A DNA stretch of 64,000 nt from Candidatus Latescibacterota bacterium (GCA_965116875.1 OZ220733.1:1696001-1760000), one strand, 5' to 3'; counted from the stretch's first letter, positions 35,251-51,841 are shown. The notes: generated by a model not told the origin, from the letters alone. Translations and numbers: made by a program.

Positions 35251-36510
35251 GATCGGCTTCTTCAAATGCTCGACTATACCCCTCACGCTGCACTCCGGCT
35301 TGGTCACGTCAAACGGAACACAGGCCAACGTTAGCCCTTCGTCAAATTCGTAATGTAATGGATCTTTAAATTGATCCGTCTTAGGGTAGACAAGCGCGAG
35401 CTTCCTGCATTTGTATTTCTTGCCGTAAGCAAACATCTGGTACATATCTGCCTGTTCGACGCCGTGTTTCGGATCACTATCCATTCCGTTAATTTCCTTC
35501 CATTTCGTGTCCAGAATCAATCGAATTCCATCATGACCCGTCAGACAGATGTCCGGCTTCATAAAAAAGACCTTCTTCTGGCCAATAGACGCCAGTTGTC
35601 TTGACGGTCCTTGCTCGCTCACCTTGAATTGATGCTGATGTCGCCGGAAACTGGCCGCAACAAAGTCCTCGAATATCTCCCACATCGGAAAAAGCAGCGC
35701 CTGGTTGACGTGTTTGCCTGCATACGTGGTCAGGCCTTGATTGAAGAGAAACAGCTCCACCCATTGCATCACCGGATCGTAATGTTGTATCGTACGGTCC
35801 ACCTGATGCCGGTCCCAGTCGCTTTTGTGGTTCGTGGAACGCGGTATTTCGGAAAAGCCAACGCGCATCTGATGGAGCAACTGCTGGTTTCTCGGCTGGC
35901 GTACCGTTCCGGTCAGTTTGTCAATCGTGCTATGAATCAGTCGGTTGGCGGGACGATTGGCGCTGAACTCATCGTAACGAACGTAAAATCGCGCTCGATT
36001 GGATGCGTTTTCACGGATGTGTTGAGGGAACAGTATCCGCCCCCGGAGGCAGGGCAGGTTGTCCTCCACGGATTTATAGTGACGGGCAAGACCGCGCTGT
36101 GTGAGCGTGACGAGGTTGTTCAAGAACAGGTGGACGAACACCTCCAGCATATTGAAGCGCCGCACAGCATTGATCTGAGTCACGTTAAACACGGCCTGCG
36201 ATTTGAAACCGCGCCACGTGCGGAGCATGGAATAAAAAATCCGTTTCGTTTCGGACTTATCTTCGTCGTCATTGACGAAATCCACCTTGGGCAGAATTTC
36301 AAGCACCGTTCTCTTGCGTGTCTCGATAATTCCGACGTGGTTTCCGGCAAACAACCTGCCGTACCTATCTTGTAGCACCGGCCTGTAGTTGCCGGGGACA
36401 TCGTGTTTATTCTCCCGAGCGAATTCCTTCAAGTCCTTCAGATCGCCCGTACTCAGGTCGGTCAGTTCTTCGTGTTCTTTAACGACCAGTGGTTTGTTTC
36501 CTGGCGGCAT
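35248..36510 (-). CDS. mcrC: McrC-family modification-dependent restriction nuclease subunit
   Basis: VGII..LEILPK, RGRI, YDEFSANRPANRLI, FPMWEIFEDFV, KPDI..ILDTKWK, ADMYQMFAYG, LVYP. Confidence 0.92.
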   Translation of the reverse strand: MPPGNKPLVVKEHEELTDLSTGDLKDLKEFARENKHDVPGNYRPVLQDRYGRLFAGNHVGIIETRKRTVLEILPKVDFVNDDEDKSETKRIFYSMLRTWRGFKSQAVFNVTQINAVRRFNMLEVFVHLFLNNLVTLTQRGLARHYKSVEDNLPCLRGRILFPQHIRENASNRARFYVRYDEFSANRPANRLIHSTIDKLTGTVRQPRNQQLLHQMRVGFSEIPRSTNHKSDWDRHQVDRTIQHYDPVMQWVELFLFNQGLTTYAGKHVNQALLFPMWEIFEDFVAASFRRHQHQFKVSEQGPSRQLASIGQKKVFFMKPDICLTGHDGIRLILDTKWKEINGMDSDPKHGVEQADMYQMFAYGKKYKCRKLALVYPKTDQFKDPLHYEFDEGLTLACVPFDVTKPECSVRGIVEHLKKPI

Positions 36511-36512
36511 GG

Positions 36513-39068
36513 TCAGGAGCCCGGTTCGGCTTCAGGGGTATCTTCTTGTGGTGGTTTCCCGCCGTAGATCGACTGGTAGTTCGCAGGATCCGTCCATTTG
36601 CTATTGGCGGCGGGCAAGAATTCATAGACGTTCTTTTCTTCATCAATCAATTGCTGTTCGCTTCGCAGATTTTCCGGGATTTCACATTCTACGATAAACC
36701 CGTTGCGATTCAAGACCAGATCGATTTTCTCCCAGTTGTCGTAAAAGTACTCCTGAAGAAGGGGTAAGATTCTATTCCTGAATCTCTCTTCAAGTGATTT
36801 CAAGCCATCAATATTCATGAAATACGTGTGCCCGATTTGATGTTCGCGATCGAGCAGGAAACGGATGCGTTCATTCATAACCTTTAGCAATTCCTGACAA
36901 TTGATACCTTCGATATCGTCTGGAACGAGCGTTGGATCTGGCATCATCTCGACAAAATCGAACCGTCGCCGCAGTGCGGTATCCAACAGGGCGATTGACC
37001 GATCGGCGGTATTCATGGTGCCGATGATGTACAGATTGTCCGGCACTCCGAAATCCTCTCCGGAGTAAGGGAGCGTGGCGGTCGTCTCATCATTTCCACC
37101 GATCCGCTTGGATTCTTCGATTAGCGTGATCAACTCGCCGAAGATCTTGGCGATATTGCCACGGTTGATTTCATCGATGATCAGGACGTAGTTCTGTTTC
37201 GCTACAGACACCGGCCTTTCTGTTGTCCATTCGTTATCGTGGAATTCTTTCACTCTTTTAAACAACTCGAAATAGTATCTCGCATTTCCGTGATAACTCT
37301 TCCCTGATCTATAGGTGGGTTTGATATCTTCCTTCGTCTTTACCTCGCCATTGTAAAAGGCGTCGTAATCTCGTTTTATCATCTTCTTAGACAGTCTCTG
37401 ATCCGTTAACGTACCGCCAAGCTGTACTGATTGGAAACTGCCCCTAGACCAATGTATCTTGGCAATCGTGACGCCACTCTTGTGATCATGAGGGAAAAGC
37501 TTGATTTCATCTTCTGATTCAAGCCTCTCGGCGATCGACACTGCAAAAGCCTCAATTAGCTCGTCTACATCCCATGAATCACCACTCATTTTCTCAGATT
37601 GCATTCTGTTTTCATCGGCAAGAAAGGCGATTTCCTTGAAGACGCCGTCGGAAAGCTCATACTCTACACTTTCTTCGCCGGCGCCAGTAAGAACAGGCCT
37701 GATGCCCTCGATAAAGTCCTCGTAGTTGTAGTTCTGGTGAAACGTCACCATTTCAATCTGGCCATTCTTCTTCAGTTTATCGAATCGTTGCATCTTGGCT
37801 TCACGGTCTTCCTTGCTTTCCATTTCGAGCTGGCCCACTGGTTTGTTGTCAATGATCGCCAGTGCGTGATTGACGGTGTGCCATGTCTTGCTCGTCCCCG
37901 GAGGGCCATACAGGATCTGATTCAAAGGATGTGGGTTTTTCATGGGCTCTCTCTTGTTTCCTATCAGCAAATCGATAAGATTAAAAGTTGGTTTGTAAGC
38001 ATGTGTTTCCTGAAATGCCTGATACGTCTTCCAGTCCGGTTTGATTTTTTCCAGAGCGTTCTGTCGCGTCTTCGTCGACAGGTCTTCGTTGCCCTTGTTT
38101 ACCCACAGGACGTGAATCCGACTGTCCCTGTTTTTTCCCAGTTCGGCATATTCGTTCTCCTGTACAACTCCAATTGCCCTTCCCTTTTGCACTCCGGTCC
38201 TTACGAGGACAATATCGCCCCTCTCCGGTTCAGTTAGCGGATAGCTACCTTCTTCGTCCCATGATTTTCCGGGCCCCGGTCCTCCCGCATAGACCCAGTT
38301 GTTTTCCTTGAAGCTGCCGTCACGGTTTTCCCAGTAATCACCGCCCTCAGGATCGAATACGTTCGTGCTGATATGATAACAGCTATCGCTCACTTGGATT
38401 CGGAACTTATCAGGCGTGGTCGGTTTTGTCAGATAGAGGAACATATTGATTTCGAAAGGCTGGCACCCCGGAAACACTTTTTTTGCTCTATTGAGAAATG
38501 ATCGATACGCCCCGTAGCCGCCAACCTCTATTGCCGACGGGATCGGCAGACTCAGAGCTTCAAGCAGTTCCGGTGATGCGCTATCAACCGGTAGAAAATA
38601 ATGGGGATTGATCAGAAAAAGCGCGTGGGTTAGTTTAGTGATCTTTACTCCTTTAATGCCCAAGACATTCAGGAAGTCATCCGGGTCTATCTCAGGACGA
38701 TTCTTCGCAGCCTGCCGAAACAGGCGCCATAGTAACGCTGACTGAGGATCCTCTTCATCGTAAAATAACACGCCAAAATTGGTACGTGGAAAGACGTAGT
38801 CTTCGTCGACATCTGTATTTATTCGTTCGATTTCGAAGACGTCGCTAACGCTTTCGTACACTGGTCTCCACTTTTTCGGGGTGTTTTTGAAAGCCAGGAA
38901 GTAAAAGAAAGAAAATGGATTGATCGCCTCAGCGCCATATTGGAGCAGTGAGGGCTTCCCTCCCCACTCCACTTGCATGGCTTTCTCGACGAGAAAATCT
39001 TCCCGACCTTCCTCGATTCTCTCTGCCAATTTTTGAAACCACGGTACCCAATCGTAAATTTCCTTCAT
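36513..39068 (-). CDS. mcrB: McrB-family AAA+ GTPase with large N-terminal region
   Basis: ILYGPPGTSKT, VTFHQNYNYEDFIEG, LIIDEINRGNIAKIFGELITLIE, GTMNTADRSIALLDTALRRRF, DREHQIGHTYF, PLLQEYFY. Confidence 0.92.
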   Translation of the reverse strand: MKEIYDWVPWFQKLAERIEEGREDFLVEKAMQVEWGGKPSLLQYGAEAINPFSFFYFLAFKNTPKKWRPVYESVSDVFEIERINTDVDEDYVFPRTNFGVLFYDEEDPQSALLWRLFRQAAKNRPEIDPDDFLNVLGIKGVKITKLTHALFLINPHYFLPVDSASPELLEALSLPIPSAIEVGGYGAYRSFLNRAKKVFPGCQPFEINMFLYLTKPTTPDKFRIQVSDSCYHISTNVFDPEGGDYWENRDGSFKENNWVYAGGPGPGKSWDEEGSYPLTEPERGDIVLVRTGVQKGRAIGVVQENEYAELGKNRDSRIHVLWVNKGNEDLSTKTRQNALEKIKPDWKTYQAFQETHAYKPTFNLIDLLIGNKREPMKNPHPLNQILYGPPGTSKTWHTVNHALAIIDNKPVGQLEMESKEDREAKMQRFDKLKKNGQIEMVTFHQNYNYEDFIEGIRPVLTGAGEESVEYELSDGVFKEIAFLADENRMQSEKMSGDSWDVDELIEAFAVSIAERLESEDEIKLFPHDHKSGVTIAKIHWSRGSFQSVQLGGTLTDQRLSKKMIKRDYDAFYNGEVKTKEDIKPTYRSGKSYHGNARYYFELFKRVKEFHDNEWTTERPVSVAKQNYVLIIDEINRGNIAKIFGELITLIEESKRIGGNDETTATLPYSGEDFGVPDNLYIIGTMNTADRSIALLDTALRRRFDFVEMMPDPTLVPDDIEGINCQELLKVMNERIRFLLDREHQIGHTYFMNIDGLKSLEERFRNRILPLLQEYFYDNWEKIDLVLNRNGFIVECEIPENLRSEQQLIDEEKNVYEFLPAANSKWTDPANYQSIYGGKPPQEDTPEAEPGS

Positions 39069-39197
39069 TGGATTGTCTCCATACTTTGGATGAATTGCAT
39101 AACAAAATGTACTGGAATTGAAAGCGAGAGTACGTTGCCTTTGGTCCCGGCAACAGTCGATCGTGCTCTCGACATATGGCAAACCGTTCTGTATGAC

Positions 39198-40720
39198 TCC
39201 GGAGCGAGGGCATCCTGCCCTCGAATTTCGCGTGACCCATCAATACCCGAACCAAGGGCTTATTGATTCCTTTGCATCCGGCATAACTCTGTCCAAGAAC
39301 CGTAAGATTCCTGGAGATGAGGTCCGAAAAGTGGATTCCGTTCGCGATTATGGACGGCTTTGACCTCGACAACGAAAATCGGGTTGCCATGGGTTCGCGT
39401 CTGTCGCAGGGCTTCTCACTCTGAACGGAGTCGAAGCATATTTCGCCGCTTCCGTATCGCGCTGGAGGCGGACGTGCTGCCTCCCGGGTATTGAGACATG
39501 CAGATCGCGCGGGAATGATGCGATGCTGCAGTAGATCCTTCGTCGGCCTGGCACCCCATCGGGATGACCGTGCGAAGAACGTGTGACGGACGCGTTTCGC
39601 CTATGTCGTGCGCAGGCCTCCTCTGGATGACAGCGGGAAGCATCGTGCTTGGCTATCGGCCAGCATGTCATTCTGAGCGGAGTCGAAGAATCTCCCGTCT
39701 CTTCGATTGAACGTGTCGCACATGGCTTCTGAAGACGAACGTGTGCGCGGACGCTTTGCCAGACATTCTGCCTCATCTGCATAACATTCGGCCGCAAGTG
39801 AGAAGGATACATTTCGCCAATGGCTGAGGAAGAGTTTTCCATCCGTATACTTCGCGCGATTCCGTGACTTTCGTAGTGAATCAAACCCGTTTTTGGACAG
39901 GCGTGATCCGAAATAACATCGAGAATGACGGCGCCAGAGCCTCACGATTTAGCCGTCGAGGGCAGGATACCCTCGCTCCCGGGAACACCAACCGCACCTG
40001 TCTCAGGACAGATATCGAAAGGGTGGAGCGGACATTCCTGTCTGCTCACGTTCATAAACCCAGGGCCTTACAATCCATTTTCCAAACACGCCCGCGACTC
40101 GCCGCCGTCTTCGCCATGGGAAAAACGAAGGCGCTTTCTACAGGACCACCTGAGCCGGGCAGACAGGAATGTCCGCCCCACCTTCAGACATGCTACCACA
40201 CCTTTTCAAATCACCTCTTCCAAATCATCCTGGACGGCAGTGATCGGACCTGAAATCCTCCCCTTACGGTTCGCCAGGAACGACGGCGACAGAGCCTCGC
40301 GATTGAGCCGTCGAGGGCAGGATGGCCTCACTCCAGCGAACGCCAATCGCACCTGTTTCAGGACAGATATCGAGAGGGTGGAGCGGACATTCCTGTCTGC
40401 TCACGTTCATAAACCCAGGACATCACAATCCATTATCCGGACACACCGCGATTCGCCGCCGTCTTCGCCATGGGAAAAACGAAGGCGGAATCGACAGGAA
40501 CACCTGAGCCGGGCAGACAGGAATGTCCGCCCCACCTTCAGACGCGCTTCTTCACTTGTCCAAGATCGTCGTTTCCGAATTATCACATATCCGACCTTGA
40601 ATCTTCTTCTCACGGGTCGTCAAGAACGACGGCGCCAGAGCCTCGCAATTGTGCCGTCGAGGGCAGGATGCCCTCGCTCCAGGGAACCCCAACCGCAACG
40701 GTCCCAGGTCGGTTTCTATA
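39198..40720. repeat. Second block of the same repeat family on the other side of mcrBC (partial unit at ~39200-39280; units near 39927, 40282, 40628), with other REP types between
   Basis: GACGGCG(C/A)CAGAGCCTC core and GGGTGGAGCGGACATTCCTGTCTGC (40021, 40376) shared with the left array in the same orientation; GTCATTCTGAGCGGAGTCGAAGAATCT at ~39667. Confidence 0.88.
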
Positions 40721-40803
40721 CTGGAGAGCGGTGACGCAAAAGCATATTTCGTCGATCATGCACCTTGCGTTCGGTTCAACGTTGAATTCCCCCCACCGAA
40801 TCA

Positions 40804-40900
40804 GCCGTCGCCGGACCCTTCGACACCCTTCGACAGGCTCAGGGCAAGTGCTCAGGGGCCGGCTCGGCTTCTGCGACTCCCCCTCAAGGGGGGAGTGATT
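40804..40900. repeat. REP-like hairpins
   Basis: ccttcgacaggctcaggg and actccccctcaaggggggagt palindrome. Confidence 0.65.
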
Positions 40901-40954
40901 TGACCGTCAAGCGGACCGCCGAGTGCTGACAGCTGAATACTGCAAGCTGATTAC

Positions 40955-41575
40955 TTATATCAATCCCTTCTCCGTCGCGATTGCGACCGCTTCGGTGCGG
41001 TTTCCGGCGCCGAGTTTGGCGAGGATTTCGCTGACGTGGAATTTGACGGTGCGTTCGGAGATGTAGAGCCGGTCGGCAATTTCCTTGTTCAGCAGGCCCG
41101 TGGCAATCAGCTTCAGCACTTCTGTCTGCCGCGTTGTCAAGCCATCCGGATCGTTGAGGCTGTCCAGAAATCTGGCAGCGACCGCCGGCGCCAGTAACGA
41201 ACCGCCTTCATGGACCACTCGCACGGCGCGAAACACGTCCTCTCTCGGCGCGCCCTTGAGCAGATAGCCCTTTGCCCCGGCGCGCATGGCCGAGACAATG
41301 CGTTCGTCCGTATCGAAGACCGTGAAGACGATCGTCTTCGCCCGGACATCCATTTCCTTCAGGCGCCGGAGGGTCTCGATGCCATCCACTCCGGGCATCT
41401 CCAGGTCCAGCAGCAGGACGTCAGGGTCGCAATCGGCCACCTTTCGCAGCGCCTCCTCCCCATCGCCGGCTTCTCCCGTCACCTCGAAATCGGACTGCGT
41501 ATTTAACATCGCGGCCAGGCCGTCACGCACAACGGGGTGGTCGTCCACAACAAGTATGCGAATTTGCGCACTCAT
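40955..41575 (-). CDS. NarL/LuxR-family response regulator
   Basis: ILVVDDHPVVRDG, LLDLEMPG, GAKGYLLK, LTTRQTEVL..GLLNKEIA..ISERTVKFHVSEILAKL. Confidence 0.95.
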   Translation of the reverse strand: MSAQIRILVVDDHPVVRDGLAAMLNTQSDFEVTGEAGDGEEALRKVADCDPDVLLLDLEMPGVDGIETLRRLKEMDVRAKTIVFTVFDTDERIVSAMRAGAKGYLLKGAPREDVFRAVRVVHEGGSLLAPAVAARFLDSLNDPDGLTTRQTEVLKLIATGLLNKEIADRLYISERTVKFHVSEILAKLGAGNRTEAVAIATEKGLI

Positions 41576-42750
41576 GCCGCCACCTGCGAGGGAATGCGAA
41601 TCTCCAGTCGGGTACCGCGACCGGGCGCGCTGTCAAGGGTAAGCGATCCCCCCAACAATTGCGCCCGCTCACTCAGGCCCGCGAGTCCATGTCGACCCTG
41701 AAAGGTGTCTGCAGGTTCGAATCCGCAACCGTCGTCTTCAACGATAAGCTCCGCGTAAGCGGGCGTCGACGTCAGTCTGAGGCGCGCCCGGTTTGCGCGT
41801 GCGTGTTCCACGACGTTGTTCAACGCCTCCTGCGCCATGCGATACAGACCGGATTCGAATCTGGCGGCAAGAGGATGTCCGCCAACGCATTCCACGCTGA
41901 CGTCCAGGCCTGCCTCGTTTCCGATCGCCTTTCCGAGATCTTCCAATGCCCCTTGCAGCGAGCGATTCTCGAGCGGGGCCGCCCGGAGGTCCAGTACCGC
42001 CCGGCGCGCATCCTCGAGATTGCCGCGAGCCAGCATCATTGCGCCGCGCACAACCTCGGACAGCTTTTCGCGATCCGTATCGTCGTCAAGCAGCGCGTCC
42101 AGCGTTTCCAGCCGCATCAGAATCGCGGCCAGATTCTGACCGAGCGTGTCGTGAATCTCCCTTGCGAGTCGGAGACGCTCATTCGCGACGCCGGTCTCCA
42201 CGCTCTGCTCATATAGACGCGCCCGTTCAATTGCGATGCTGGTCAGATCGCCCACCGTATTGAGCAGCCGCAGATCCTCGGACGAAAGTTCGCGCCACTC
42301 CACGCTCGCCACGTTCAATACACCCACTCGCTTTCGGTTTGCATACAACGGAATGCTCGCGTGATAACGCAGACCCTCCGTTCCTTCAACAAGCCCCTTC
42401 AGCCGGCTGCAGGCCACGACGTTCACGTTCGCGGCCCCCTTCAGATCTCCTTTCCGGTATGTATCCAGGCAATAGCACCATCCGCCCATCTTGACCGGAT
42501 TGTCCTGCAACGCGGGAGGCAGATTCTGCGCGGCGGCCAGGTACGGCTCACCCGTCTCTTCGCTCATGAGCCAGATCCAGCTTGTACTCAGGTCGAGCAG
42601 TGCGGCAACCTTACGAAGCGTTGCTTCCAGGGCCTGGTCGAGATCTACGGACCGGTTCAGTGCGTGCGCAATCTCGTTCAGAACCGTGAGTTCGCGATTG
42701 CGCTGTCCCAGTTGATCGGTTGGCATCGGCAACTTGTCTTGATCGGGCAT
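41572..42750 (-). CDS. Cytoplasmic GAF-domain HisKA_3 histidine kinase, AirS/YhcY-like Cys motif
   Basis: GAF with WCYC...AANVNVVACSRL; ERLRLAREIHDTLGQ; QEALNNVVEHA; DDGCGF; no transmembrane segment seen. Confidence 0.9.
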   Translation of the reverse strand: MPDQDKLPMPTDQLGQRNRELTVLNEIAHALNRSVDLDQALEATLRKVAALLDLSTSWIWLMSEETGEPYLAAAQNLPPALQDNPVKMGGWCYCLDTYRKGDLKGAANVNVVACSRLKGLVEGTEGLRYHASIPLYANRKRVGVLNVASVEWRELSSEDLRLLNTVGDLTSIAIERARLYEQSVETGVANERLRLAREIHDTLGQNLAAILMRLETLDALLDDDTDREKLSEVVRGAMMLARGNLEDARRAVLDLRAAPLENRSLQGALEDLGKAIGNEAGLDVSVECVGGHPLAARFESGLYRMAQEALNNVVEHARANRARLRLTSTPAYAELIVEDDGCGFEPADTFQGRHGLAGLSERAQLLGGSLTLDSAPGRGTRLEIRIPSQVAA

Positions 42751-42793
42751 TGGGTCTCGATTCGCGTGAATGCTTTGCCAAAATATCTCCTGT

Positions 42794-43900
42794 TCAGGGC
42801 AAAATCAAGTGCAGATCGCCAAACTCGTGCCACAGATACCCTTCGTTGAGCGCCGCTTCGTAGGTCACCCGCAGATGATCCAGGCCCGTCAATGCCTGCA
42901 GCATCGATAGATGGGTGGCGCTCGGTTCGTGCATCCCGGTCAACAGGCCGTCTACGATCCGCATCGGCCGTTCGGGCGAGATCAACAGCGTCGTCCATCC
43001 TTCGCCCGGGTAGACCCGTCCGGTTTTATCGGCTACAGTCTCCAGCGCGCGGACCACCGTGGTGCCCACAGCGACAATCCGCCCGCCGTTTCTGTGTGCG
43101 TTGTTGATCACCCGTGCAGTCGGTACCGGAACGCGGTAGTACTCTTCGTACGGCGGCTCATCGGACTCAAGACTCGCGACTCCGGTGTGCAGGATCAGCG
43201 GCGCAATCTGAACGCCCTTCGCCACCAGGTCGGTGATGACCCGGGGCGTGAACGCGCGGCCGGCCGACGGCATTTCGGCGCTGCCCGCCTCGGTCGCGTA
43301 TTCGTTCTGGTAAACCTCGATCGGCCAGTTGTCCCGAACGTAACCATACCGAATGGGCGCGCCGTATACGTCAAGGTACGTGTCAACGTCGTAAGGCAAA
43401 TGTAACGTTGCGATCCACAAACGAACGTCAGCGTCTGGATCGCCCCTGTGTTCAGGCCTGTAGGGCGCGTGCAGATGCGCCGATCCGTCACCGGGCAACG
43501 CCAACACCTCGCCCGGACGCGCCCGAAGAAAAGGTCGCCCGGCGTCCGATGTGCGCACTTCAACAACCCACATCTCAGCCGGCAATTGCGTGGACAAATG
43601 CAGCCTCAACTCCGGACCGTCGGGCCGGGTAACCGGCAATGACGCTTTGCGGGTACCGCTGGTATTGATCACCACCACGTCACCCTCATGAAGCACACCG
43701 GGCAGATCACGAAATGCGACGTGTTCAATTGAATCATCGCTTCGCCGCGAGACCATCAACCGTACCGCGTCCCGGCTGAGGCCGCGAGCTTCCGGCGGTT
43801 CGCCCGCCTCAAGGCGCGACGGGAGTTCAAAGGCCAGGGAGTCCAGCTTTGAATTCACGTTCGCAACGGGCAGAACCGTATTGGCCCTTGTATCAATCAT
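42794..43900 (-). CDS. QueA-family (SAM:tRNA ribosyltransferase-isomerase-like) divergent paralogue
   Basis: GDVVVINTS, GSAEMPSAGRAFT, LHTGVAS, VAVGTTVVRALET, GLLTGMHEP, YLWHEFGDLHLI. Confidence 0.85.
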   Translation of the reverse strand: MIDTRANTVLPVANVNSKLDSLAFELPSRLEAGEPPEARGLSRDAVRLMVSRRSDDSIEHVAFRDLPGVLHEGDVVVINTSGTRKASLPVTRPDGPELRLHLSTQLPAEMWVVEVRTSDAGRPFLRARPGEVLALPGDGSAHLHAPYRPEHRGDPDADVRLWIATLHLPYDVDTYLDVYGAPIRYGYVRDNWPIEVYQNEYATEAGSAEMPSAGRAFTPRVITDLVAKGVQIAPLILHTGVASLESDEPPYEEYYRVPVPTARVINNAHRNGGRIVAVGTTVVRALETVADKTGRVYPGEGWTTLLISPERPMRIVDGLLTGMHEPSATHLSMLQALTGLDHLRVTYEAALNEGYLWHEFGDLHLILP

Positions 43901-44062
43901 AGGAATCCCCCTTTTCAGCCATCCACCAGGATTCGTGTGTTTTCGTGGACGATCAATCGAATACATGAAACTTGACAAAGGCGATTCAACTGCGAATTAC
44001 CAGGATAAACCAGGTCGCTGGCATCGAACGGGACCTCTCCCCCCAGCCGCCCGACCACCGGG

Positions 44063-44186
44063 TGAGACGTGAAACGGGAGAGGGTAGAGATGACCAGCCT
44101 TGCGGGGTTTCCTCTCGTGCCGGAGGCAAGGAGGGACAACATGCCGGGCGAGGATTTCTTCTCCCGTCTCACCTCTCCCTTCTACC
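44063..44186 (+). repeat. ~120-bp hairpin element, copy 1 of 6
   Basis: GAGACG/GGGAGAG arms around a core like GAGATTACCTGCCTTGT..TTTCTTCTCGTGCCGGAGGCAA..TCGGGCAAGG..TTCTTCT. Confidence 0.8.
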
Positions 44187-44239
44187 CGCTTTCAGGTTCT
44201 TTACGGCCAATTTGACTGTTGTCTTTTTTTGAATTGAGG

Positions 44240-44941
44240 TCAACTCGTGACCTCGGAGAATGACTCTCGCGCCGCGTAGCGCCCACTCTCGTGCGATCCT
44301 TCCAGCAGTTCCACAAATCCCGCCACGCTCGTCTCCGGCAGGGGGCGATCGCTGATATCCTCTCCGGGAAACGCTTCCTGATGCATCCGGGTCCGCATAT
44401 CGCCGGGATCGACCCAATAGATCCGCCAGTCCGGACGTTCCGCCGCGAGCACGTTTGAAAGCTGTTCAAGCGCCGCTTTGGACGAACCGTATCCACCCCA
44501 GCCCTCGTACGCCTCACGGGCCGCGTCGCTCGTCACGTTGATCACACGAGCGCCCGGTTTCAGCGCCTCACGAACGGCCTGAAGCACGCCCAGCGGCGCA
44601 ATAACATTGGCGCGATACACGTCTTCCAGGGAATCGAGTGGATAATCGAGCAATTCCGGCTGTGGACTCGGACCCAGCATGCCGGCATTGTTGACCACGG
44701 CATCCAGCCCCCCGGCTTCATGCACGGCCCGAGCCAACTCCAGACGATGTTTGGATTCCGTGACATCGCCTGGAATGGCGATCACTTCTGTCGATTTTTC
44801 GAGTTCCTCGCGCGCGGCTTCGAGCGCCGCCGCACCCCTGGCGTTGATGACCAGGCGCCATCCGTGCCCCGCGAGTTCTCGAGCGAGCGCAAGTCCCAGG
44901 CCCCGGGATGCGCCGGTGATTAGCGCTGTTCGCATTGACAT
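44240..44941 (-). CDS. Short-chain dehydrogenase/reductase
   Basis: TGASRGLG, VVNNAG, NVTSDA, YGSSK, VDPGDMRT. Confidence 0.93.
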   Translation of the reverse strand: MSMRTALITGASRGLGLALARELAGHGWRLVINARGAAALEAAREELEKSTEVIAIPGDVTESKHRLELARAVHEAGGLDAVVNNAGMLGPSPQPELLDYPLDSLEDVYRANVIAPLGVLQAVREALKPGARVINVTSDAAREAYEGWGGYGSSKAALEQLSNVLAAERPDWRIYWVDPGDMRTRMHQEAFPGEDISDRPLPETSVAGFVELLEGSHESGRYAARESFSEVTS

Positions 44942-45011
44942 GTTCGACCTCCTTTGTATCTGATGTGTTTGCTGTCTGGACCGCCTTGTCTTGTCGTGGC
45001 TGAAATTTAGA

Positions 45012-45047
45012 TAAACAAAAAGCCCTCCGCATCGAACGGAGGGCGTG
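45012..45047 (-). terminator. Rho-independent terminator upstream of the SDR gene
   Basis: Minus strand GCCCTCCG-TTCGATG-CGGAGGGC-TTTTGTTT. Confidence 0.75.
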
Positions 45048-45194
45048 TTTGCGTCCTGTACTATTGGACAGGGAGAACCTGCCTATGCCATCAGCGTATC
45101 CGAGATAACCACAGCTGCCGGGTGCTGGCTGAGAAGAGTTATAATGAGCTGGTGAGGGTCCGGATCGCCGTGGTGTCGCGTTGTGGTGTCCACC

Positions 45195-47912
45195 TCAAAA
45201 CCCCGAAAACTTCGCTTCGCCGATCGACGTGAGCGAGCGGTCGGCGGTGTGAGCGAAGGCCGAGGTCCGGATGCGGTAACGCACCGTTCCCGGGATCTCC
45301 CGATGCGGGAAGAACAGATGGCGCATGCCATCGCTGTTGACGTCGAATCCGGGGTCGGCGTCCAGCAACACGTGGGTCTCCCCACCTTCGAGCGACACTG
45401 CCCGCACCCGGCACCCCCGGGTCGATCCATCGCCGAACGTCACGATCGCGGTTGCCCCTTTCAATGCTTCACTTTCCGGCAATTCGCCGGCAACGACCAG
45501 ACCGTCATACTCCGCGCCGGATTCCTTCCTCAATGTACCCGTCACCTCGCCCACATAGGCGCCGGCGGCTTCCAGGGATGCCTGTTTCCACTTCAGGCGG
45601 GTCCCGCCCCAGAGGCCCATCATTTCCGGCAGGCCGTTCCGCACCCTCACGAACCCCACTTCGCCATCCAGCGAGAGTTCTGCCATGGATATACCGCTGT
45701 CACCCGATCCTGTCCGATACACGATATAGTCGACAACGCCGTGATGTCTCACCGTGATCCCCACCGCGTCGCCATCCATCTTCTCAAGTCGCACGTCGTC
45801 TACGAACGGTTCTCCGTCAAACGGTTCGTGTACCGCGGCGAACAGACTCGACAGCGGCGCGGGACCCTTCCGGCGCAACAGGAAGATGGGCATCCGAAAC
45901 CGATCCTGGAGCGCATCGTTCTCCTCCGCCCTGCGAAACGACATGGCATCCCCCGCGAACACATCCGCGCCCGCCTGTCCGGGAATATGCGTCCGCACCG
46001 CCACGGGTGAGTCGTCAATGTTGAACGTGATCGACAAATCGTCCGAAACCGCGCCGCCCGATACATTCTGAAAATACGCATAGGCGACATTCCGGCCTTC
46101 GGCGTCGCCCCGGTCCGACTCGCCGGTGGGAAGCCGGACGTCCACGCCCGGAAGCATGTTTTCACCGTAGGACGCAAGTGGAACGCTGACCGTCGCGTCC
46201 CCGTCCGCATCCGCGTCCCCGTGCAACGCCCAGTCGTGCTGCGAGCCACCGGTCACGTGAAACAGGTCCACCGCGTACACATCCGATTCTCCGGCGTTCA
46301 CCAGAAGCAGCGCGCGCCGGTAGACCTGCGCCAGCCCGGGGTACGCCGCCTCCCCGCTCGCTTCCACCCACTTCACCACATCGAAATCCGGTTCGAAGGC
46401 CAGCAGCCGCCCGTCCGAAGGTCCCTGTCTGCCGCCTGAATACTGCCGCTGCTCATCGATAACCACCGTATTGTGACACAGCGTGCTCGTACTCCACACC
46501 CGGTGCCGCGTGTGGGTGTACCCGACGTCCGGCAACAGTTCGCGCCCCTTGGCGAACAGAACCATGTTCAGATTGTCCGCGTGCTGGTGCCCGTATCCGC
46601 CCGAAAAGTGAAGATGAAGCTGCACCTGTTCGTCGGCCATGCCACGCCCCAGCCACGCGTGTCCGACTCCCGCCAGTAATGTGGAAGCCGAGCGTTCAGG
46701 TACCTTCAGGTTTCTGAAGTGCGCCCAGTTGTCGTGCATGGTCATCTGCCGCCCGTCGGGATACCGGCAGATTTCCAGGATTCGCTCTGCACTGGCGATC
46801 ACAGGGATGTCCCGTGAAAGGTCCAGGTTGTCCAAACGGGTCCCGCTCTCCGGATGGACATAGCCCGGCGGGTCGCTATAGCCCCGTACTGCACGGAATA
46901 CCCTGTTCATGCCGCCCATCGTCATCTGATGATACCCTACGCTGCCCTCCATCCAGAACCCGTCTTCATAGAACATCCGCCTGAACAGTTCCCGGCCTCG
47001 CCTTACGCCCTCGTGCACCAGCCCGGGATCTGACAGGACTCGTCCGATCGCAATGTACCCTTCGTATATACGGGGACCCGCATTGCCGTAAACGATCCCG
47101 TGAAACTGGTCCTGTCGAATGGCGCCGCGGAAGAAGTCGTTCTCGATGCGCGCCTTTACGTCCGCCCCCACCTCGTCCGAGAGTCGCTCCAGTTCGCCGC
47201 TGTCGTAGATCGAATCGTACGCGAACACCAGGTTCGTGGGCATCTCGTCGTGGCGCCACCGCCCCCATTTTCCGCCGCCATTGGGATACGGCGGCTCGGT
47301 TGCGAAACCCTTCGGCCTGTGCGGCCAGTCGCGGCTCACGAGGAATCCCGGATAGTACCGTGCGAACGCATCCAGAATCAACACGGCGCGGCGTGCGTAG
47401 GCCGGATCGCCCGTCACCTGGTAGAGTTCCCCAAGAATCTGCGCGATCCGCGAAAAATACGATCGCGCTTCACGCCATCCCCGGGCCGAAAACAGGTACC
47501 TGTACCCGGTCGCGTCCTCCCAGTAGGGATACGCCACCTCCACGCCCACCGGATTCACCACCTTCATCACCCGATCTTCGGGAAACTGATCGTTCGGAAA
47601 AACCATGTCGCAGAATCGGCATTTCACCCGGTGCGGATCGGATATCGACCATCGCAACTGCCCCTCCTGCGTCCCCTCGTCGCAGTTCGGGCAGCCCATG
47701 AAACGAAAGCCGGTTTTGTCAGGAACCAGGGCCACCATGTCGGCTTCGGGCATCGCCATCACCCTCGAAACCACGCGCTTCAACACGGCGACGCGTTTCG
47801 CCGACACCTCAACCGGATAGACCGGGCGGGTTGGCTCAGCCAGCGCCGACCGCGCCCAGCCCAGGGCAATCAAGCAGCACAACGTCAGCGTCAACACGTC
47901 AATAACGTCCAT
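45195..47912 (-). CDS. Secreted heparinase II/III-like protein with N-terminal CxxC pair
   Basis: Signal peptide; GCPNC...CRFC; DGFWMEGSVGYH; GHQHADNL..DVGY..STLCHNTVVIDE. Confidence 0.78.
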   Translation of the reverse strand: MDVIDVLTLTLCCLIALGWARSALAEPTRPVYPVEVSAKRVAVLKRVVSRVMAMPEADMVALVPDKTGFRFMGCPNCDEGTQEGQLRWSISDPHRVKCRFCDMVFPNDQFPEDRVMKVVNPVGVEVAYPYWEDATGYRYLFSARGWREARSYFSRIAQILGELYQVTGDPAYARRAVLILDAFARYYPGFLVSRDWPHRPKGFATEPPYPNGGGKWGRWRHDEMPTNLVFAYDSIYDSGELERLSDEVGADVKARIENDFFRGAIRQDQFHGIVYGNAGPRIYEGYIAIGRVLSDPGLVHEGVRRGRELFRRMFYEDGFWMEGSVGYHQMTMGGMNRVFRAVRGYSDPPGYVHPESGTRLDNLDLSRDIPVIASAERILEICRYPDGRQMTMHDNWAHFRNLKVPERSASTLLAGVGHAWLGRGMADEQVQLHLHFSGGYGHQHADNLNMVLFAKGRELLPDVGYTHTRHRVWSTSTLCHNTVVIDEQRQYSGGRQGPSDGRLLAFEPDFDVVKWVEASGEAAYPGLAQVYRRALLLVNAGESDVYAVDLFHVTGGSQHDWALHGDADADGDATVSVPLASYGENMLPGVDVRLPTGESDRGDAEGRNVAYAYFQNVSGGAVSDDLSITFNIDDSPVAVRTHIPGQAGADVFAGDAMSFRRAEENDALQDRFRMPIFLLRRKGPAPLSSLFAAVHEPFDGEPFVDDVRLEKMDGDAVGITVRHHGVVDYIVYRTGSGDSGISMAELSLDGEVGFVRVRNGLPEMMGLWGGTRLKWKQASLEAAGAYVGEVTGTLRKESGAEYDGLVVAGELPESEALKGATAIVTFGDGSTRGCRVRAVSLEGGETHVLLDADPGFDVNSDGMRHLFFPHREIPGTVRYRIRTSAFAHTADRSLTSIGEAKFSGF

Positions 47913-48009
47913 GAGACCACTTCCTTTCAATGACGCATTCGAAGGCCACTTTCGAATCCTGCGAAACACCGTCCACGGCACTTCGCGGTCCGGCTGAATG
48001 TCTCTGTCG

Positions 48010-48990
48010 TTATCTGGCAGCATTCGTTCGGACCAGCTTCCAGACGTCCGGAAACATGTTGTTGCCCGCCACCATCCAGAGCGCATCGTCGTAGACGAAT
48101 ACACTGGCGGCGTGGCGCGGGGCCCACGGCGTATCCGGCAGTTCGGTCCAGTTCACCCCGTCCGGGCTGTACCACACGTCGTTCCGGTTCCAGCTGCCGG
48201 TCGCCTCGTCCATCGAACGATGGGCCGCCTCGTGAAAGCATCCCTCCATCACCCATAATTTGTCGTCCCACACGCCAACGTCGTGATACTGTCTGGGAGC
48301 CCAGGGCGCCGCACGGGTATGCAATTCCCAGTTGACGCCGTCGGCGGTGCTCCATACGTCGCCGAACATCTTCCGGCTGTTGATACGCGGCGTATCGTAC
48401 GTCCCTCCGCCCAGAATCCAGATCCGGTCCCGAAAAACGGCGCTGCCGCCGATCATTCCGCGTTCTTCCCACGGCGCGTTTTCAACCACCCGGTTCCAGG
48501 TCCGGCCATCCGCCGAATTCCACACGTCGTTGAAAAAGACCTCCTTCTCATCCGCGAATTGGGGGATGGTCTGCCCGCCCATTACCCAGATTCTGCCGTC
48601 GTGGACCGCTGTATAGTGCAAGACCCTCGGGCCCCAGGGCACGGGGTCGCAGATCAGTTCCCAGGCGATGCCATCCGCGCTGCGCCAGACGTCGTTCTGA
48701 TAGTGCCCCTGGTTGCAGTCCCCTCCCACGATCCACATCCGACCGTCATGAACGGCGTAACCGGCCGTGTGCCGCCCCTCCCAGGGCGCCTCCTCGTTCA
48801 CTTCGATCCAGGTTTCGCCGTCGATCGAACACCACACCTCGCTGTTGCAGATGATTGGAAAATTGACCTTGTCACCAGGATTCCACCCGCCCAGCAGCCA
48901 CATCTTGTCCTGAAACACCAGCGCGCCCGCGCCGTCCCGCCCCGCGAAGGCGGCATTTTCCGTTACGCAAATCCATTCGTAATCGGGCAT
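48010..48990 (-). CDS. Kelch-repeat beta-propeller protein
   Basis: Repeated R....V...MW..GG...NDVW.S.DG..W blades. Confidence 0.85.
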   Translation of the reverse strand: MPDYEWICVTENAAFAGRDGAGALVFQDKMWLLGGWNPGDKVNFPIICNSEVWCSIDGETWIEVNEEAPWEGRHTAGYAVHDGRMWIVGGDCNQGHYQNDVWRSADGIAWELICDPVPWGPRVLHYTAVHDGRIWVMGGQTIPQFADEKEVFFNDVWNSADGRTWNRVVENAPWEERGMIGGSAVFRDRIWILGGGTYDTPRINSRKMFGDVWSTADGVNWELHTRAAPWAPRQYHDVGVWDDKLWVMEGCFHEAAHRSMDEATGSWNRNDVWYSPDGVNWTELPDTPWAPRHAASVFVYDDALWMVAGNNMFPDVWKLVRTNAAR

Positions 48991-49007
48991 GAAAACCTCC
49001 TGAATAA

Positions 49008-49135
49008 GGGGAGACGGAAGACGGGAGAGGGTAGAGATTACCTGCCTTGTCAGGTTTCTTCTCGTGCCGCAGGCAAAGAGGAATGAAATATCGGGCGAGG
49101 ATTTCCTCTACCGTCTACCCTCTACCGTCTCCCCG
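49008..49135 (+). repeat. ~120-bp hairpin element, copy 2
   Basis: Same arms and core as 44063-44186. Confidence 0.8.
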
Positions 49136-49143
49136 CCTTTCTC

Positions 49144-50199
49144 CTACCACCCCTGCCGCCCCACGTAAAGTCCCCGGTTCTTCATCGGCAGTCGGACCCG
49201 CACGCCGCCCAGACGGTGGGACTCGATGAATCCCATCACCATCTCCTGGCTTCGCCGCGCCAACTGGACGGGACCCGATGTTTCCCGTCCCGTGTCCAGC
49301 GCTTCGGCAATATCCCGGAGACCGTTCACCGTGCCACTCTCGATCGACACCTCGGGAAACGGCTGTTCCTCCAGCATATGCCTCACGCCGCAGGCCTTCC
49401 GGTATTGGCAGTTCATCCCGTTGTCGTACGTCCTCAGCTTACCCTCGGAGCCGCACAGCTCGAATTCAGTTCCGCTCCCGCCCACTGTATAACCAAGGAC
49501 GCCGTTGTGAAACCGGACGAATCCGGCTGCCACTCCCGGGTCCACGTTCAACCGGTTGTCCTCCCAATCCGCGTCCTCACAGACGATGGTTCCCTGGACG
49601 AAATCAATCTCCGGATCGCCCGCCAGATACAACATCATATCCGACCCGTGGGTAAGTCCCCACAGCGCGGAGGTCACACCCTGCTGTACGATCACGGCCT
49701 GAACCGTTCCCAGGTCTCCGGCGTCGGCCAGTTCCCGCATCTTCTGATAAACCGGAATATATCGACGTTGGGTGCCATAGTTGAACTTCGTCCCGTTTTT
49801 CTCCACTGCCGCCACCATCGCGTCCGCCTCCTCCATCGAACAGCAGAGCGGCTTCTCGCAATAGATCCCCCTGACCCCGTTTTCGGCCGCGAAGACGGCC
49901 ATCTCCGAGTGGGTCGCCGGGCGCGTGGCGATACACGCGATATCCGGCTTCTCCTTGTGGATCATCTCCCGGTAGTCGGTGTAGCAGACCGGCACGCCGT
50001 ACCGGTCGCGAATCGACTCCGCCTTTTCGGCCACCACGTCCGAGACTGCCACCAGGTCCGTCCGCTCGCAGGCCACGGCGGCCGCCGCGTGCGAGTACGG
50101 GATCCAGAGGTGGCTGTTGGGATGGTCGCGCACCTCGTCATCGATCGTCGCCCCCATCCGCCCGCATCCGATCAACACTGTCCGATATCGATCCGCCAT
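49144..50199 (-). CDS. Gfo/Idh/MocA-family oxidoreductase
   Basis: IGCGRMG, YTDYREM, IYCEKP, THGSD. Confidence 0.9.
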   Translation of the reverse strand: MADRYRTVLIGCGRMGATIDDEVRDHPNSHLWIPYSHAAAAVACERTDLVAVSDVVAEKAESIRDRYGVPVCYTDYREMIHKEKPDIACIATRPATHSEMAVFAAENGVRGIYCEKPLCCSMEEADAMVAAVEKNGTKFNYGTQRRYIPVYQKMRELADAGDLGTVQAVIVQQGVTSALWGLTHGSDMMLYLAGDPEIDFVQGTIVCEDADWEDNRLNVDPGVAAGFVRFHNGVLGYTVGGSGTEFELCGSEGKLRTYDNGMNCQYRKACGVRHMLEEQPFPEVSIESGTVNGLRDIAEALDTGRETSGPVQLARRSQEMVMGFIESHRLGGVRVRLPMKNRGLYVGRQGW

Positions 50200-50224
50200 T
50201 TTCCTATCCTCGTGATCGTGAACG

Positions 50225-51841
50225 TTACTCCACCGCGTTGGACTGCATCTCCGCCCTCAGGGGCCCGAACATGCCATGCCCCCATTTGAGATCCGCGTCC
50301 TGCACCATCTTCTCCGCTTGCCCGGGTCGGAGCGGCGCCGTACCCAGAATCCGGCCGTCCTGCGCGATGCTTATCTGATCGGATCCAATGGCAAACTCCA
50401 GCTTCGTCGGCTTTCCCGTCCAGGCAACGGGCACGGAAACGCTGCCGGGTTTTCTCACCCGGTAGACCTTCCGGTACTGGTCCCACACCTCGTCGTCGTG
50501 CAGGAACGAATGCCGCATGTCTCGAACGGGACAACCCTTTGCGCTCACCGAGAGGTAGAGCGCGTCGCCCATGGGCGCCAGACCGGTCACGCGCTGCCCC
50601 CAATCGTTGATCACCAGGTCGGTACCGTTTTCCTCGTTATAGGCGACCACCCGGTCTTCGTAGGGATGGTTCATGTTGTTCGTAATCTGCGGTTCGCGGA
50701 ACATCCGTTTCACAAAATGCCACGCGTCCGCGTGCGCGTCGTACCGCCACAGTTCCGACCAGGGCCATACCCCCACGTAGAGGTCCCCCCCGTAAATCGT
50801 CGTAGTCTGCGCCTCGCGCACGCTGCCGGACACGCCCGGCATCACGGGAGGATCGCCTTCCAGATGGCGCAACTCCCTGCCGTCGTACCGGAACAGGTTT
50901 CCGGTCGGGTACTGCGCGATCAGCAACTCGTCGTACCAATTCAACATTGAATAGAGCTGAAAACTCACGCCAGCCAAGGAAGCCCGTACGATCTTCCATT
51001 CGGACCCGTCGAATACGTACACGCCCCCCATGTTGGAGGAATTCACGATCTCGTCTCCTAGTTGTCCGATGGAGAACGGCGTTTCCTGTGGATACTTGAG
51101 ATCCAGGGTCACTGCTTTGTCCAGGTCCACCGGTCCGCTTCCCGGCGTCCACGGCACCGCATAGAGGGTGGTATAGGGTGGGTCCGAATCCTGGTCTTTG
51201 TGGAAAAACGTAAGGGCGCCAAGCGCGTAATAGAAATGGTGATAGCGTCCTCTCGCGGGTTTATCCAGGACCCTCTCGCCGTCGTACGTGGCCACGCTCT
51301 CCTTGAACTGGAACACCTTCCCTGCAATCCGCATCTTTCCGTCGCCGCTTACGGTTTCGCCCACGCCGAAACTCTCGTCCGCCTGCCAGGAGCCCGACTC
51401 GTCGTCCCACCACCGCGCGGTCCTGTCCTGGTGATAGCTGCACGAGTACACCCTGCCGTCCAGATCGAACAGATAGCTCCCCCCGTCCTCCGTGGATGGC
51501 GGCAGGGTCTCGAATTGCGGCTCCGCCACGTCGTCGCGCACGAAGAACTGCAGCGTGAACCGGTCCATTCTGAACGCGGTGTTGTAGACGCCCACAAATC
51601 CCGCCCCCAGAACCGCGCGACCATCCCCGTCCCGGGCTTCGAACAACGAACCCCAGTTCTGTCCCAAGTCCCGGCCGAAATCGATCGTTGTTTCAATTCG
51701 CATGATATGTGTCTCCCCGGCATGCCCCGGCAGCGGCCAGAGCAGCAATGTCGCAAGCATCCAGTGCATTGCAAACGAATTCTCCGCGGTTAGATATCTC
51801 GTCGCCCGATCCCATTCTGCGACACTGCCGTCTGACGCCAT
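50225..51841 (-). CDS. Hypothetical, probably secreted beta-propeller protein
   Basis: 538-aa ORF, 1-bp overlap with the upstream stop; YVFDG/FRYDG/LWRYD blade-like repeats; true start may be ~51769. Confidence 0.65.
   Translation of the reverse strand: MASDGSVAEWDRATRYLTAENSFAMHWMLATLLLWPLPGHAGETHIMRIETTIDFGRDLGQNWGSLFEARDGDGRAVLGAGFVGVYNTAFRMDRFTLQFFVRDDVAEPQFETLPPSTEDGGSYLFDLDGRVYSCSYHQDRTARWWDDESGSWQADESFGVGETVSGDGKMRIAGKVFQFKESVATYDGERVLDKPARGRYHHFYYALGALTFFHKDQDSDPPYTTLYAVPWTPGSGPVDLDKAVTLDLKYPQETPFSIGQLGDEIVNSSNMGGVYVFDGSEWKIVRASLAGVSFQLYSMLNWYDELLIAQYPTGNLFRYDGRELRHLEGDPPVMPGVSGSVREAQTTTIYGGDLYVGVWPWSELWRYDAHADAWHFVKRMFREPQITNNMNHPYEDRVVAYNEENGTDLVINDWGQRVTGLAPMGDALYLSVSAKGCPVRDMRHSFLHDDEVWDQYRKVYRVRKPGSVSVPVAWTGKPTKLEFAIGSDQISIAQDGRILGTAPLRPGQAEKMVQDADLKWGHGMFGPLRAEMQSNAVE

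Follow-up and report, generated by a model that had tools for sequence, protein, structure and literature searches.

Four co-oriented genes in a 64,000-nucleotide (nt) stretch of the genome of a Candidatus Latescibacterota bacterium (GCA_965116875.1, OZ220733.1:1696001-1760000; "the window" below denotes this whole stretch) encode a short-chain dehydrogenase/reductase (SDR), a paralogue of QueA, a soluble sensor kinase and a NarL/FixJ-type response regulator. The paralogue belongs to a family that is distinct from canonical QueA, obligately paired with the SDR, independent of tgt and queC, and often associated either with this kinase/regulator pair or with the redox sensor SoxR. On balance we lean, by a modest degree, towards a redox-stress-controlled small-molecule pathway built on QueA-type S-adenosylmethionine (SAM) chemistry. 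The central idea of an earlier, sequence-only reading of the locus, namely a non-canonical QueA reaction combined with a reductase and a redox switch, is supported by the data presented here and strengthened by the link to SoxR.

The four-gene locus

The presence of the locus is confirmed, with all four open reading frames (ORFs) on the minus strand at the positions first read from the sequence. The SDR gene (44240-44941, minus strand) encodes a classical SDR of 233 amino acids (aa; Pfam adh_short, 128 bits), and is followed by the gene of the QueA-family paralogue (42794-43900, minus strand), which matches the whole Pfam Queuosine_synth domain with 244 bits. The sensor kinase gene (41572-42750, minus strand) combines the Pfam domains GAF_2, HisKA_3 and HATPase_c, and the response regulator gene (40955-41575, minus strand) combines Response_reg (97.4 bits) and GerE (73.7 bits). 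The reading frame of the QueA-like gene is open from a TTG at 43978 (42794-43978); since most of its closest homologues are 368 aa long and an AGGGGG ribosome-binding stretch precedes the ATG at 43900, translation probably starts at this ATG and gives a protein of 368 aa. The start of the regulator gene overlaps the kinase stop by 4 nt, 43 nt lie between the QueA-like stop and the kinase start, and the wider spacing of ~339 nt between the SDR and QueA-like genes results from the insertion of a dispersed repeat of ~325 nt described below. The strings quoted earlier for the QueA-like protein (VYQNEYATEAGSAEMPSAGRAFT and YLWHEFGD) and for the GAF domain of the kinase (WCYCLDTYRKGDLKGAANVNVVACSRL) are all found in the sequence, and no tgt is adjacent, the sole TGT match of the genome lying ~195 kb away. 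The source genome consists of one contig of 5.45 Mb and is 97.7% complete.

Obligate pairing with a short-chain dehydrogenase/reductase

The SDR carries the classical motifs of its family (TGASRGLG, NNAG, Ser138, Tyr151 and Lys155). The three last residues are invariant in 35 SDR orthologues; the likewise invariant Arg35 after strand 2 we take to mark an NADP(H)-type SDR. We compared the surroundings of the paralogue in three sets of loci: 39 loci from genome contigs found with the protein of the window (Latescibacterota, Rubrobacter, Chloroflexota, Bacteroidota, a Bacillus, Actinomadura and unclassified metagenome-assembled genomes (MAGs)), 20 loci cut from Actinomycetes genomes, and 80 loci found with an actinomycete member, from Actinomycetes and others. 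Wherever at least 800 nt of upstream flank were available, an SDR orthologue lies directly upstream on the same strand (35/35, 20/20 and 74/74 loci, that is 129/129), with a median gap of 32 to 54 nt between the aligned SDR and QueA-like parts. This count leaves out nine loci with too short a flank as well as a Gemmatimonadales locus (L041), which was first labelled a paralogue, falls among canonical QueAs in the tree described below and has no adjacent SDR. Such a pairing across several phyla places the arrangement far beyond chance, and the actinobacterial SDR/QueA-like clusters mentioned in the sequence-only reading do exist, as the second and third sets (20/20 and 74/74 loci) demonstrate. 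An all-against-all clustering of neighbouring ORFs returned no further family common across phyla besides the kinase and the regulator.

A fusion of SDR and QueA-like protein was considered and rejected, since the SDR is not in frame within the long ORFs of high-GC loci. In five Kribbella loci (L091, L098, L110, L111 and L135), the gene immediately preceding the SDR gene, in the same orientation, encodes an FAD-linked oxidase, and neither SoxR nor a kinase/regulator pair is adjacent. In one further locus (L029, 5001-6039) the QueA-like gene aligns as two overlapping pieces in different frames, likely owing to a frameshift or an assembly error.

Relationship to canonical QueA

The QueA-family protein departs from canonical QueA, as suspected from its motifs: it obtains 165.7 bits against NF001140 (cut-off 324) and 144.1 bits against TIGR00113 (cut-off 267.45), and so lies below both NCBIfam equivalog cut-offs. 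The same genome encodes elsewhere a canonical QueA (446.8 bits on PF02547 versus 244 for the paralogue), one Tgt (514 bits) and QueG (395 bits versus a cut-off of 200), and QueH had no match in the source genome. With queA, tgt and queG present elsewhere, the normal queuosine pathway is therefore complete without the paralogue. At least 8000 database relatives of the paralogue were scored, and a tree was built from 34 sequences comprising paralogues of several phyla and the canonical QueAs of the same genomes (quick search, midpoint rooted). It splits into a clade of 27 paralogues and a clade of seven canonical sequences, with a Shimodaira-Hasegawa-like approximate likelihood ratio support of 100% on both sides. 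Given this separate clade and the canonical copy elsewhere in the genome, the protein of the window is a true paralogue and not the sole QueA of its genome. One Bacteroidota MAG carries a third Queuosine_synth gene (L067, G005:C99:7880-9112) besides its canonical and paralogue copies, a 475-aa ORF scoring 349 bits and sitting on a very long branch of the tree.

The predicted structure of the paralogue (pLDDT 88.1, pTM 0.87, from an alignment of 42 sequences) matches only QueA in the PDB at E ≤ 0.001, with four chains (two of 1VKY, 1YY3 and 1WDI) and TM scores of 0.51-0.68. The model shows the two-domain fold of QueA, in which the second, beta-barrel-like domain appears to be retained, and at the sequence level the paralogue aligns to the QueA structures over its full length (E 2.8e-43 to 5.4e-37). 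We found 41 alignment positions conserved in both the paralogue and canonical clades, among them R43, R47, D74, N79, H238, E253, T280-T281, R284, E287, H324 and D362, and 18 clade-specific switches, such as canonical AAPTAGL to EMPSAGR in the paralogues and R-F-x-S near the C-terminus to L-W-x-E. Such a pattern is what would be expected of an enzyme that retained its core chemistry around a rebuilt substrate pocket. The paralogue thus resembles QueA, the tRNA preQ1(34) S-adenosylmethionine ribosyltransferase-isomerase (PF02547; 1VKY, 1YY3, 1WDI), in Pfam family, full-length alignment, fold and conserved positions, but differs from it in missing the equivalog cut-offs, in forming a separate clade, in its 18 switched motif positions, in occurring without tgt or queC, and in having an SDR always adjacent. 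Canonical queA is linked to tgt in two of the genomes (G002 and G003), whereas the paralogue is linked to redox regulators instead. The accessible part of PMC9092360 describes QueA as a unique enzyme, and queuosine and epoxyqueuosine as the sole products made from the ribose of SAM. We found no description of the QueA paralogue family or of its regulator links in the searchable literature, although subscription papers or supplements may hold one.

Independence from the queuosine pathway

Canonical QueA acts on preQ1-tRNA, downstream of Tgt, and the co-occurrence with tgt and with preQ0/preQ1 synthesis that is therefore expected of a QueA is not seen for the paralogue. In Actinomadura macra, the paralogue is present while matches to canonical QueA and TGT are absent. 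We screened 201 Actinomycetes genomes that are at least 90% complete. A Queuosine_synth match occurs in 58 of them, always in the score range of the paralogue (175-257 bits), and a TGT in 30, but the two groups do not overlap in a single genome (Fisher p 1.7e-5). The result also holds when G024, an unpublished genome among the 58, is left out. QueC was matched over most or all of the model (97-265 bits) in four of the 201 genomes and partially, with 60 bits, in one more, and only two of the 58 paralogue carriers (G169 and G030) are among these; the many weak hits to this model (20-27 bits) cover just the N-terminal nucleotide-binding part of other enzymes. Since most carriers have the paralogue without tgt or queC, a Tgt-made or preQ0-derived substrate is excluded for most of them, which is in line with the non-canonical substrate proposed from the sequence. 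The same data speak against the "alternative queuosine route" proposed along with it: the source genome possesses tgt, canonical queA and queG, and most carriers elsewhere are devoid of the pathway.

These observations likewise bear on a back-up or condition-specific QueA that would continue to form epoxyqueuosine on tRNA, the SDR then serving as an alternative to the usual epoxyqueuosine reductase. We regard this as very improbable: the full-length similarity to QueA structures, the shared fold, the tgt of the source genome (so that preQ1-tRNA exists) and the missing QueH match would fit it, but TGT is found in none of the 58 actinomycete carriers and no QueC match in 56 of them, the source genome already has canonical QueA and QueG, and the 18 switches affect otherwise invariant motifs in a protein below both equivalog cut-offs.

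Association with a three-cysteine GAF kinase and a NarL-type regulator

The GAF domain of the kinase contains the motif Cys92-x-Cys94-X19-Cys114, together with a YHAS histidine. Among the 119 kinase homologues listed, the CxC-X19-C motif followed by S/T-R is found in all, the downstream (Y/H)-H-A-(S/T) in 116, and exactly three cysteines within the first 190 residues in 112. The identity of the GAF domain across phyla amounts to 70-76%, which is unusual for a sensor domain. AirS is a soluble [2Fe-2S] sensor kinase that signals to a NarL-type partner. The AirS motif of Staphylococcus aureus AirSR (YhcSR) is given as Cys-X7-Cys-X-Cys-X17-Cys in the accessible part of PMC4601167, and the kinase of the window, compared at the motif level, resembles it in having a CxC-containing cysteine cluster in the N-terminal sensor region, but differs by having three cysteines instead of four, with X19 spacing. 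The label "AirS-like" given to the kinase from its sequence is therefore apt for three of the four cysteines and not for the first, which has no counterpart within the 12 upstream residues checked in 115 of the 119 homologues. A precedent for a three-cysteine [2Fe-2S] cluster in a sensor kinase is provided by NreB of Bacillus licheniformis (as described in the accessible part of PMC13478379), where the cluster resides in a PAS and not in a GAF domain, and with which we claim no homology. By analogy, cofactor binding by the three-cysteine GAF domain is plausible, and the kinase is a well-defined candidate for a new sensor of redox state or of a ligand. The regulator, with its Response_reg and GerE domains, has the composition of the NarL/FixJ class but stays below all named equivalog cut-offs (177 versus 250 bits for NarL).

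Seven Latescibacterota loci have the kinase and regulator genes after the QueA-like gene, and eight other loci (Rubrobacter, Anaerolineae and three unclassified lineages) have them ahead of the SDR gene, so that the same four genes are arranged in two orders. Of 151 Chloroflexota genomes, 30 hold the paralogue and 25 the kinase, with both in 21, the paralogue only in nine, the kinase only in four and neither in 117 (Fisher p 5e-15, uncorrected); paralogue and kinase are unlinked in 16 of the 21 genomes holding both.

Several loci show peculiarities in this region. Small PF17648 ("Luciferase domain") proteins are encoded between regulator and SDR in two Rubrobacter loci (L036, 3867-4220, and L022, 1362-2234), the latter with a gene of the metallo-beta-lactamase fold in the same interval, and the kinase gene of L008 (6168-7311) aligns as two overlapping pieces in different frames, again likely because of a frameshift or an assembly error.

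SoxR and a soxbox-like palindrome in Actinomycetes

In the two sets of loci collected from or with Actinomycetes, a soxR gene adjoins the SDR gene in 15/20 and 36/80 loci (51/100 by tblastn), and is divergent in all 51. Three of the encoded proteins (L043, L047 and L058) reach 195-198 bits against TIGR01950 (cut-off 116.9) and are thus SoxR at equivalog level, with the cysteine motif of the [2Fe-2S] cluster, CIGCGCLSLQKC, visible in that of L043; the other 48 are assigned by tblastn alone, mostly with at least 187 bits and with 159 as the lowest value listed. A soxbox-like palindrome, ACTTGAAGTT-N-ACTTCAAGT, is present in 41 of the 51 soxR-SDR intergenic regions under a strict pattern, the ten others showing degenerate palindromes, and it also occurs upstream of the SDR gene in eight of 45 loci that have no adjacent soxR. 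Direction was read in a single locus (L049), where a -35-like hexamer, the palindrome and a -10-like stretch are oriented towards the SDR gene, a layout that matches the MerR-type promoter architecture described for Streptomyces SoxR targets in the accessible part of PMC4146615. The redox control proposed from the sequence thus gains independent support from an established [2Fe-2S] redox sensor as a divergent neighbour in 51 actinomycete loci.

The SoxR regulons of Streptomyces coelicolor and Pseudomonas aeruginosa offer the closest parallel, with a divergent soxR and a palindrome in a promoter facing an oxidoreductase gene. According to the accessible part of PMC4146615, these small regulons comprise redox enzymes and transporters, which process redox-active metabolites, and none of the six S. 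coelicolor targets listed there belongs to the QueA family. The source genome differs from these systems in that SoxR had no match in it, the linked regulator being the GAF kinase/regulator pair. In the remaining five of the 20 actinomycete loci and in Actinomadura, a GAF kinase and a regulator are encoded divergently, and the GAF domain does not have the three cysteines.

Sporadic VOC domains and transporters

Further parts join the operon in some lineages. The SDR is fused to a C-terminal VOC/glyoxalase domain in one Rubrobacter and one Anaerolineae locus (L022 and L029), giving proteins of 370 and 378 aa whose VOC parts are 40% identical, and a separate VOC gene, with a weak Fos/glyoxalase-I likeness far below the cut-offs, follows the QueA-like gene in a Bacillus and in another Rubrobacter (L038 and L042). 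A Nocardia locus (L141) has a divergently oriented tandem VOC gene. As for transporters, Actinomadura (L039) has an MFS gene between SDR and QueA-like gene that overlaps the end of the former, a Bacteroidota MAG (L032) has an EamA gene after the QueA-like gene, and an NCS1 permease (two Amycolatopsis loci) or MFS gene (one MAG) is found upstream on the same strand in three more loci (L107, L115 and L127). Some enzymes of the VOC superfamily open epoxide rings, using thiols or water. As a QueA-type product carries an epoxide, the VOC association is chemically suggestive, resting on few loci.

Conserved leader, repeat insertion and flanking genes

Upstream of the SDR gene lies a conserved leader (44991-45098, minus strand) made of a CAGG-N5/6-CCTG inverted repeat, an AAACAC stretch, a terminator hairpin and a TAAATTT box. 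The terminator-like hairpin with its U-run (45022-45044, minus strand) has nine pairs, seven of them GC, and a T-rich tail. This leader of ~110 nt is common to 19 of 20 aligned Latescibacterota loci, whatever the gene further upstream, with L007 having no 5' inverted repeat; in an earlier alignment of 13 loci, it was absent from L025. Its consensus fold is a GC-rich hairpin of 9 bp with one compensatory pair (13 UA / 7 CG), and it occurs as a single copy in the genome. Since a terminator scan returned four sites in the scanned region, equal to the shuffle mean of 4.0, it is the conservation, and not the scan, that constitutes evidence for the hairpin. No known RNA was found by Rfam in 40500-45500 at E ≤ 1, a region that covers both leader and repeat. 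The inverted repeat is not a genome-wide operator and was not found upstream of unlinked kinase genes, and a sigma-70 promoter scan gave 0 sites, this pattern being uninformative for the phylum. The leader may act as an attenuator or give rise to a small RNA, or it may combine an insulating terminator with a promoter and an operator.

The insertion between the SDR and QueA-like genes (43915-44238, minus strand) is a copy of ~325 nt of a dispersed palindromic repeat, present at this place in this genome only: the closest relatives (L006 and L004) do not have it, and their two genes are ~10-20 nt apart. The repeat family has a core of ~130 nt, extends up to ~320 nt and forms a long imperfect hairpin, whose fold is no better than that of shuffled sequences (z-score -0.49); it gives 206 blastn hits in its own genome, with further copies near window positions 49139, 54506 and 58308.

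Just downstream of the four genes, a McrBC-type restriction pair (35248-39182; a McrC-like protein of 420 aa and an AAA_5 protein of 889 aa) lies in a stretch with a G+C content of 0.47-0.50 versus ~0.60, and resembles an inserted island. Upstream (45195-52803), a heparinase II/III-like protein of 969 aa, a Kelch-repeat protein, a GFO/IDH/MocA oxidoreductase, an unannotated ORF of 538 aa and a zinc alcohol dehydrogenase probably make up an unrelated glycan-utilisation cluster.

Proposed function and alternatives

We propose that the SDR and the QueA paralogue constitute an obligate two-enzyme module that would act on a small molecule and not on tRNA. Because the QueA fold and the 41 core positions are kept, the paralogue most likely still uses SAM as ribosyl donor; the reaction would then set adenine and methionine free while forming an epoxy-dihydroxycyclopentane on a nucleophile, the rebuilt pocket presumably taking an acceptor other than preQ1-tRNA. 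The NADP(H)-type SDR may subsequently reduce or oxidise either this product or the acceptor; where a VOC/glyoxalase-type domain and a transporter are present, as in some lineages, they could add further steps. Expression would be tied to the sensing of redox state or of redox-active compounds, through the three-cysteine GAF kinase and the NarL-type regulator here, in Rubrobacteria, in Chloroflexota and in their relatives, and through SoxR at a soxbox promoter pointing into the SDR gene in most Actinomycetes. Paralogy, the obligate SDR pairing, the independence from tgt and queC and the regulator associations are observed directly; we infer the use of SAM, the chemistry, the identity of the signal and the control of this operon by the kinase and regulator.

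A more specific version of this proposal, which we put forward only tentatively and would not bet on, is that under redox stress the paralogue builds an epoxy-cyclopentanediol from the ribosyl moiety of SAM on a small acceptor, which would make a new class of SAM-derived metabolites under SoxR or GAF-kinase control. The acceptor could be a redox-cycling amine, thereby inactivated for export, or else water or a thiol, yielding a free carbocyclic product. The SDR, and in some lineages an epoxide- or carbonyl-handling VOC domain, might turn the carbocycle into a protective or signalling cyclopentanoid, and the product might itself be a ligand of the three-cysteine GAF domain.

Several observations weigh against the proposed redox-controlled SAM-dependent pathway. 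On the enzymatic side, none of the three matched solved QueA entries is titled as a ligand complex. Net charge differs within the source genome (isoelectric point 5.45 for the paralogue versus 9.31 for canonical QueA), and the paralogues are mostly acidic, which is weak evidence, but it gives no clear separation of the clades since other canonical QueAs are acidic too. Moreover, the clustering of neighbouring ORFs yielded no further constantly linked enzyme that would name a pathway. On the regulatory side, the GAF domain of the window is without the fourth cysteine of AirS and its four-cysteine motif; the actinomycete GAF kinases have none of the three cysteines, so that the two types of kinase may respond to different signals. 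In 13 of 20 Latescibacterota loci, the surrounding 5 kb do not contain the kinase/regulator pair (five genomes of those 13 were searched, and each keeps one orthologous pair elsewhere), and neither SoxR nor the kinase/regulator pair lies within 2.5 kb in 31 of the 72 loci of the third set with enough flank. The Fisher statistics of co-occurrence were not corrected for phylogeny. In the source genome itself, the repeat insertion parts the SDR gene from the other three, and the conserved leader with its terminator points to another layer of control.

An alternative that we consider unlikely, though it survives best among those envisaged, is that the paralogue performs no SAM ribosyl transfer but, for example, an isomerisation or lyase reaction on a quinone, a phenazine or a sugar-derived compound, with the SDR as the main detoxifying reductase of a SoxR-type regulon. 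It would agree with the processing of redox-active metabolites by the SoxR regulons of S. coelicolor and P. aeruginosa (accessible part of PMC4146615), with the heavily changed pocket motifs and with the VOC partners, which fit detoxification; yet the 41 positions still conserved with canonical QueA argue that the core chemistry was kept, and the QueA fold has no known non-SAM activity.

About as unlikely is a modification of another macromolecule, such as an amine on an RNA or DNA base, a protein lysine or a component of the cell envelope, by a QueA-type ribosyl transfer. QueA, the sole characterised member of the family, acts on a polymer (accessible part of PMC9092360), and the model keeps the second, beta-barrel-like domain. 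However, none of the conserved neighbours handles nucleic acids or proteins, the paralogues are mostly acidic (a weak argument), and the operon is joined, in part through gene fusions, by transporters and VOC domains typical of small-molecule pathways. For this last reason, the "modification system" of the sequence-only reading, as far as it meant a macromolecule, appears less likely than small-molecule metabolism.

It also seems improbable that the kinase and regulator are mere neighbours controlling other genes, and that in the source genome the conserved leader is the sole control of the enzyme pair, redox state having no influence on it. The 13 Latescibacterota loci in which the two-component genes are unlinked, the conservation of the leader whether or not these genes are adjacent, and the fact that no shared operator was found upstream of unlinked kinase genes would be explained in this way. 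Against it stand the adjacency of the four genes in two orders across at least four phyla or candidate lineages, the strong co-occurrence in Chloroflexota even when the genes are unlinked, and the fact that Actinomycetes put a regulator of another class, SoxR, in the equivalent position.

Significance

Collectively, these observations describe a large, ancient sister family of QueA that stands apart from the queuosine pathway. Of the genomes sampled, 58 of the 201 from Actinomycetes and 30 of the 151 from Chloroflexota contain the paralogue. Members of this family are systematically annotated as the tRNA enzyme despite occurring without tgt. If the paralogue is indeed a SoxR-linked, SDR-coupled small-molecule enzyme, a common mis-annotation would be corrected and a conserved member would be added to the SoxR regulons of actinomycetes, and this would open the question of what the transfer of the ribosyl group of SAM makes outside tRNA.

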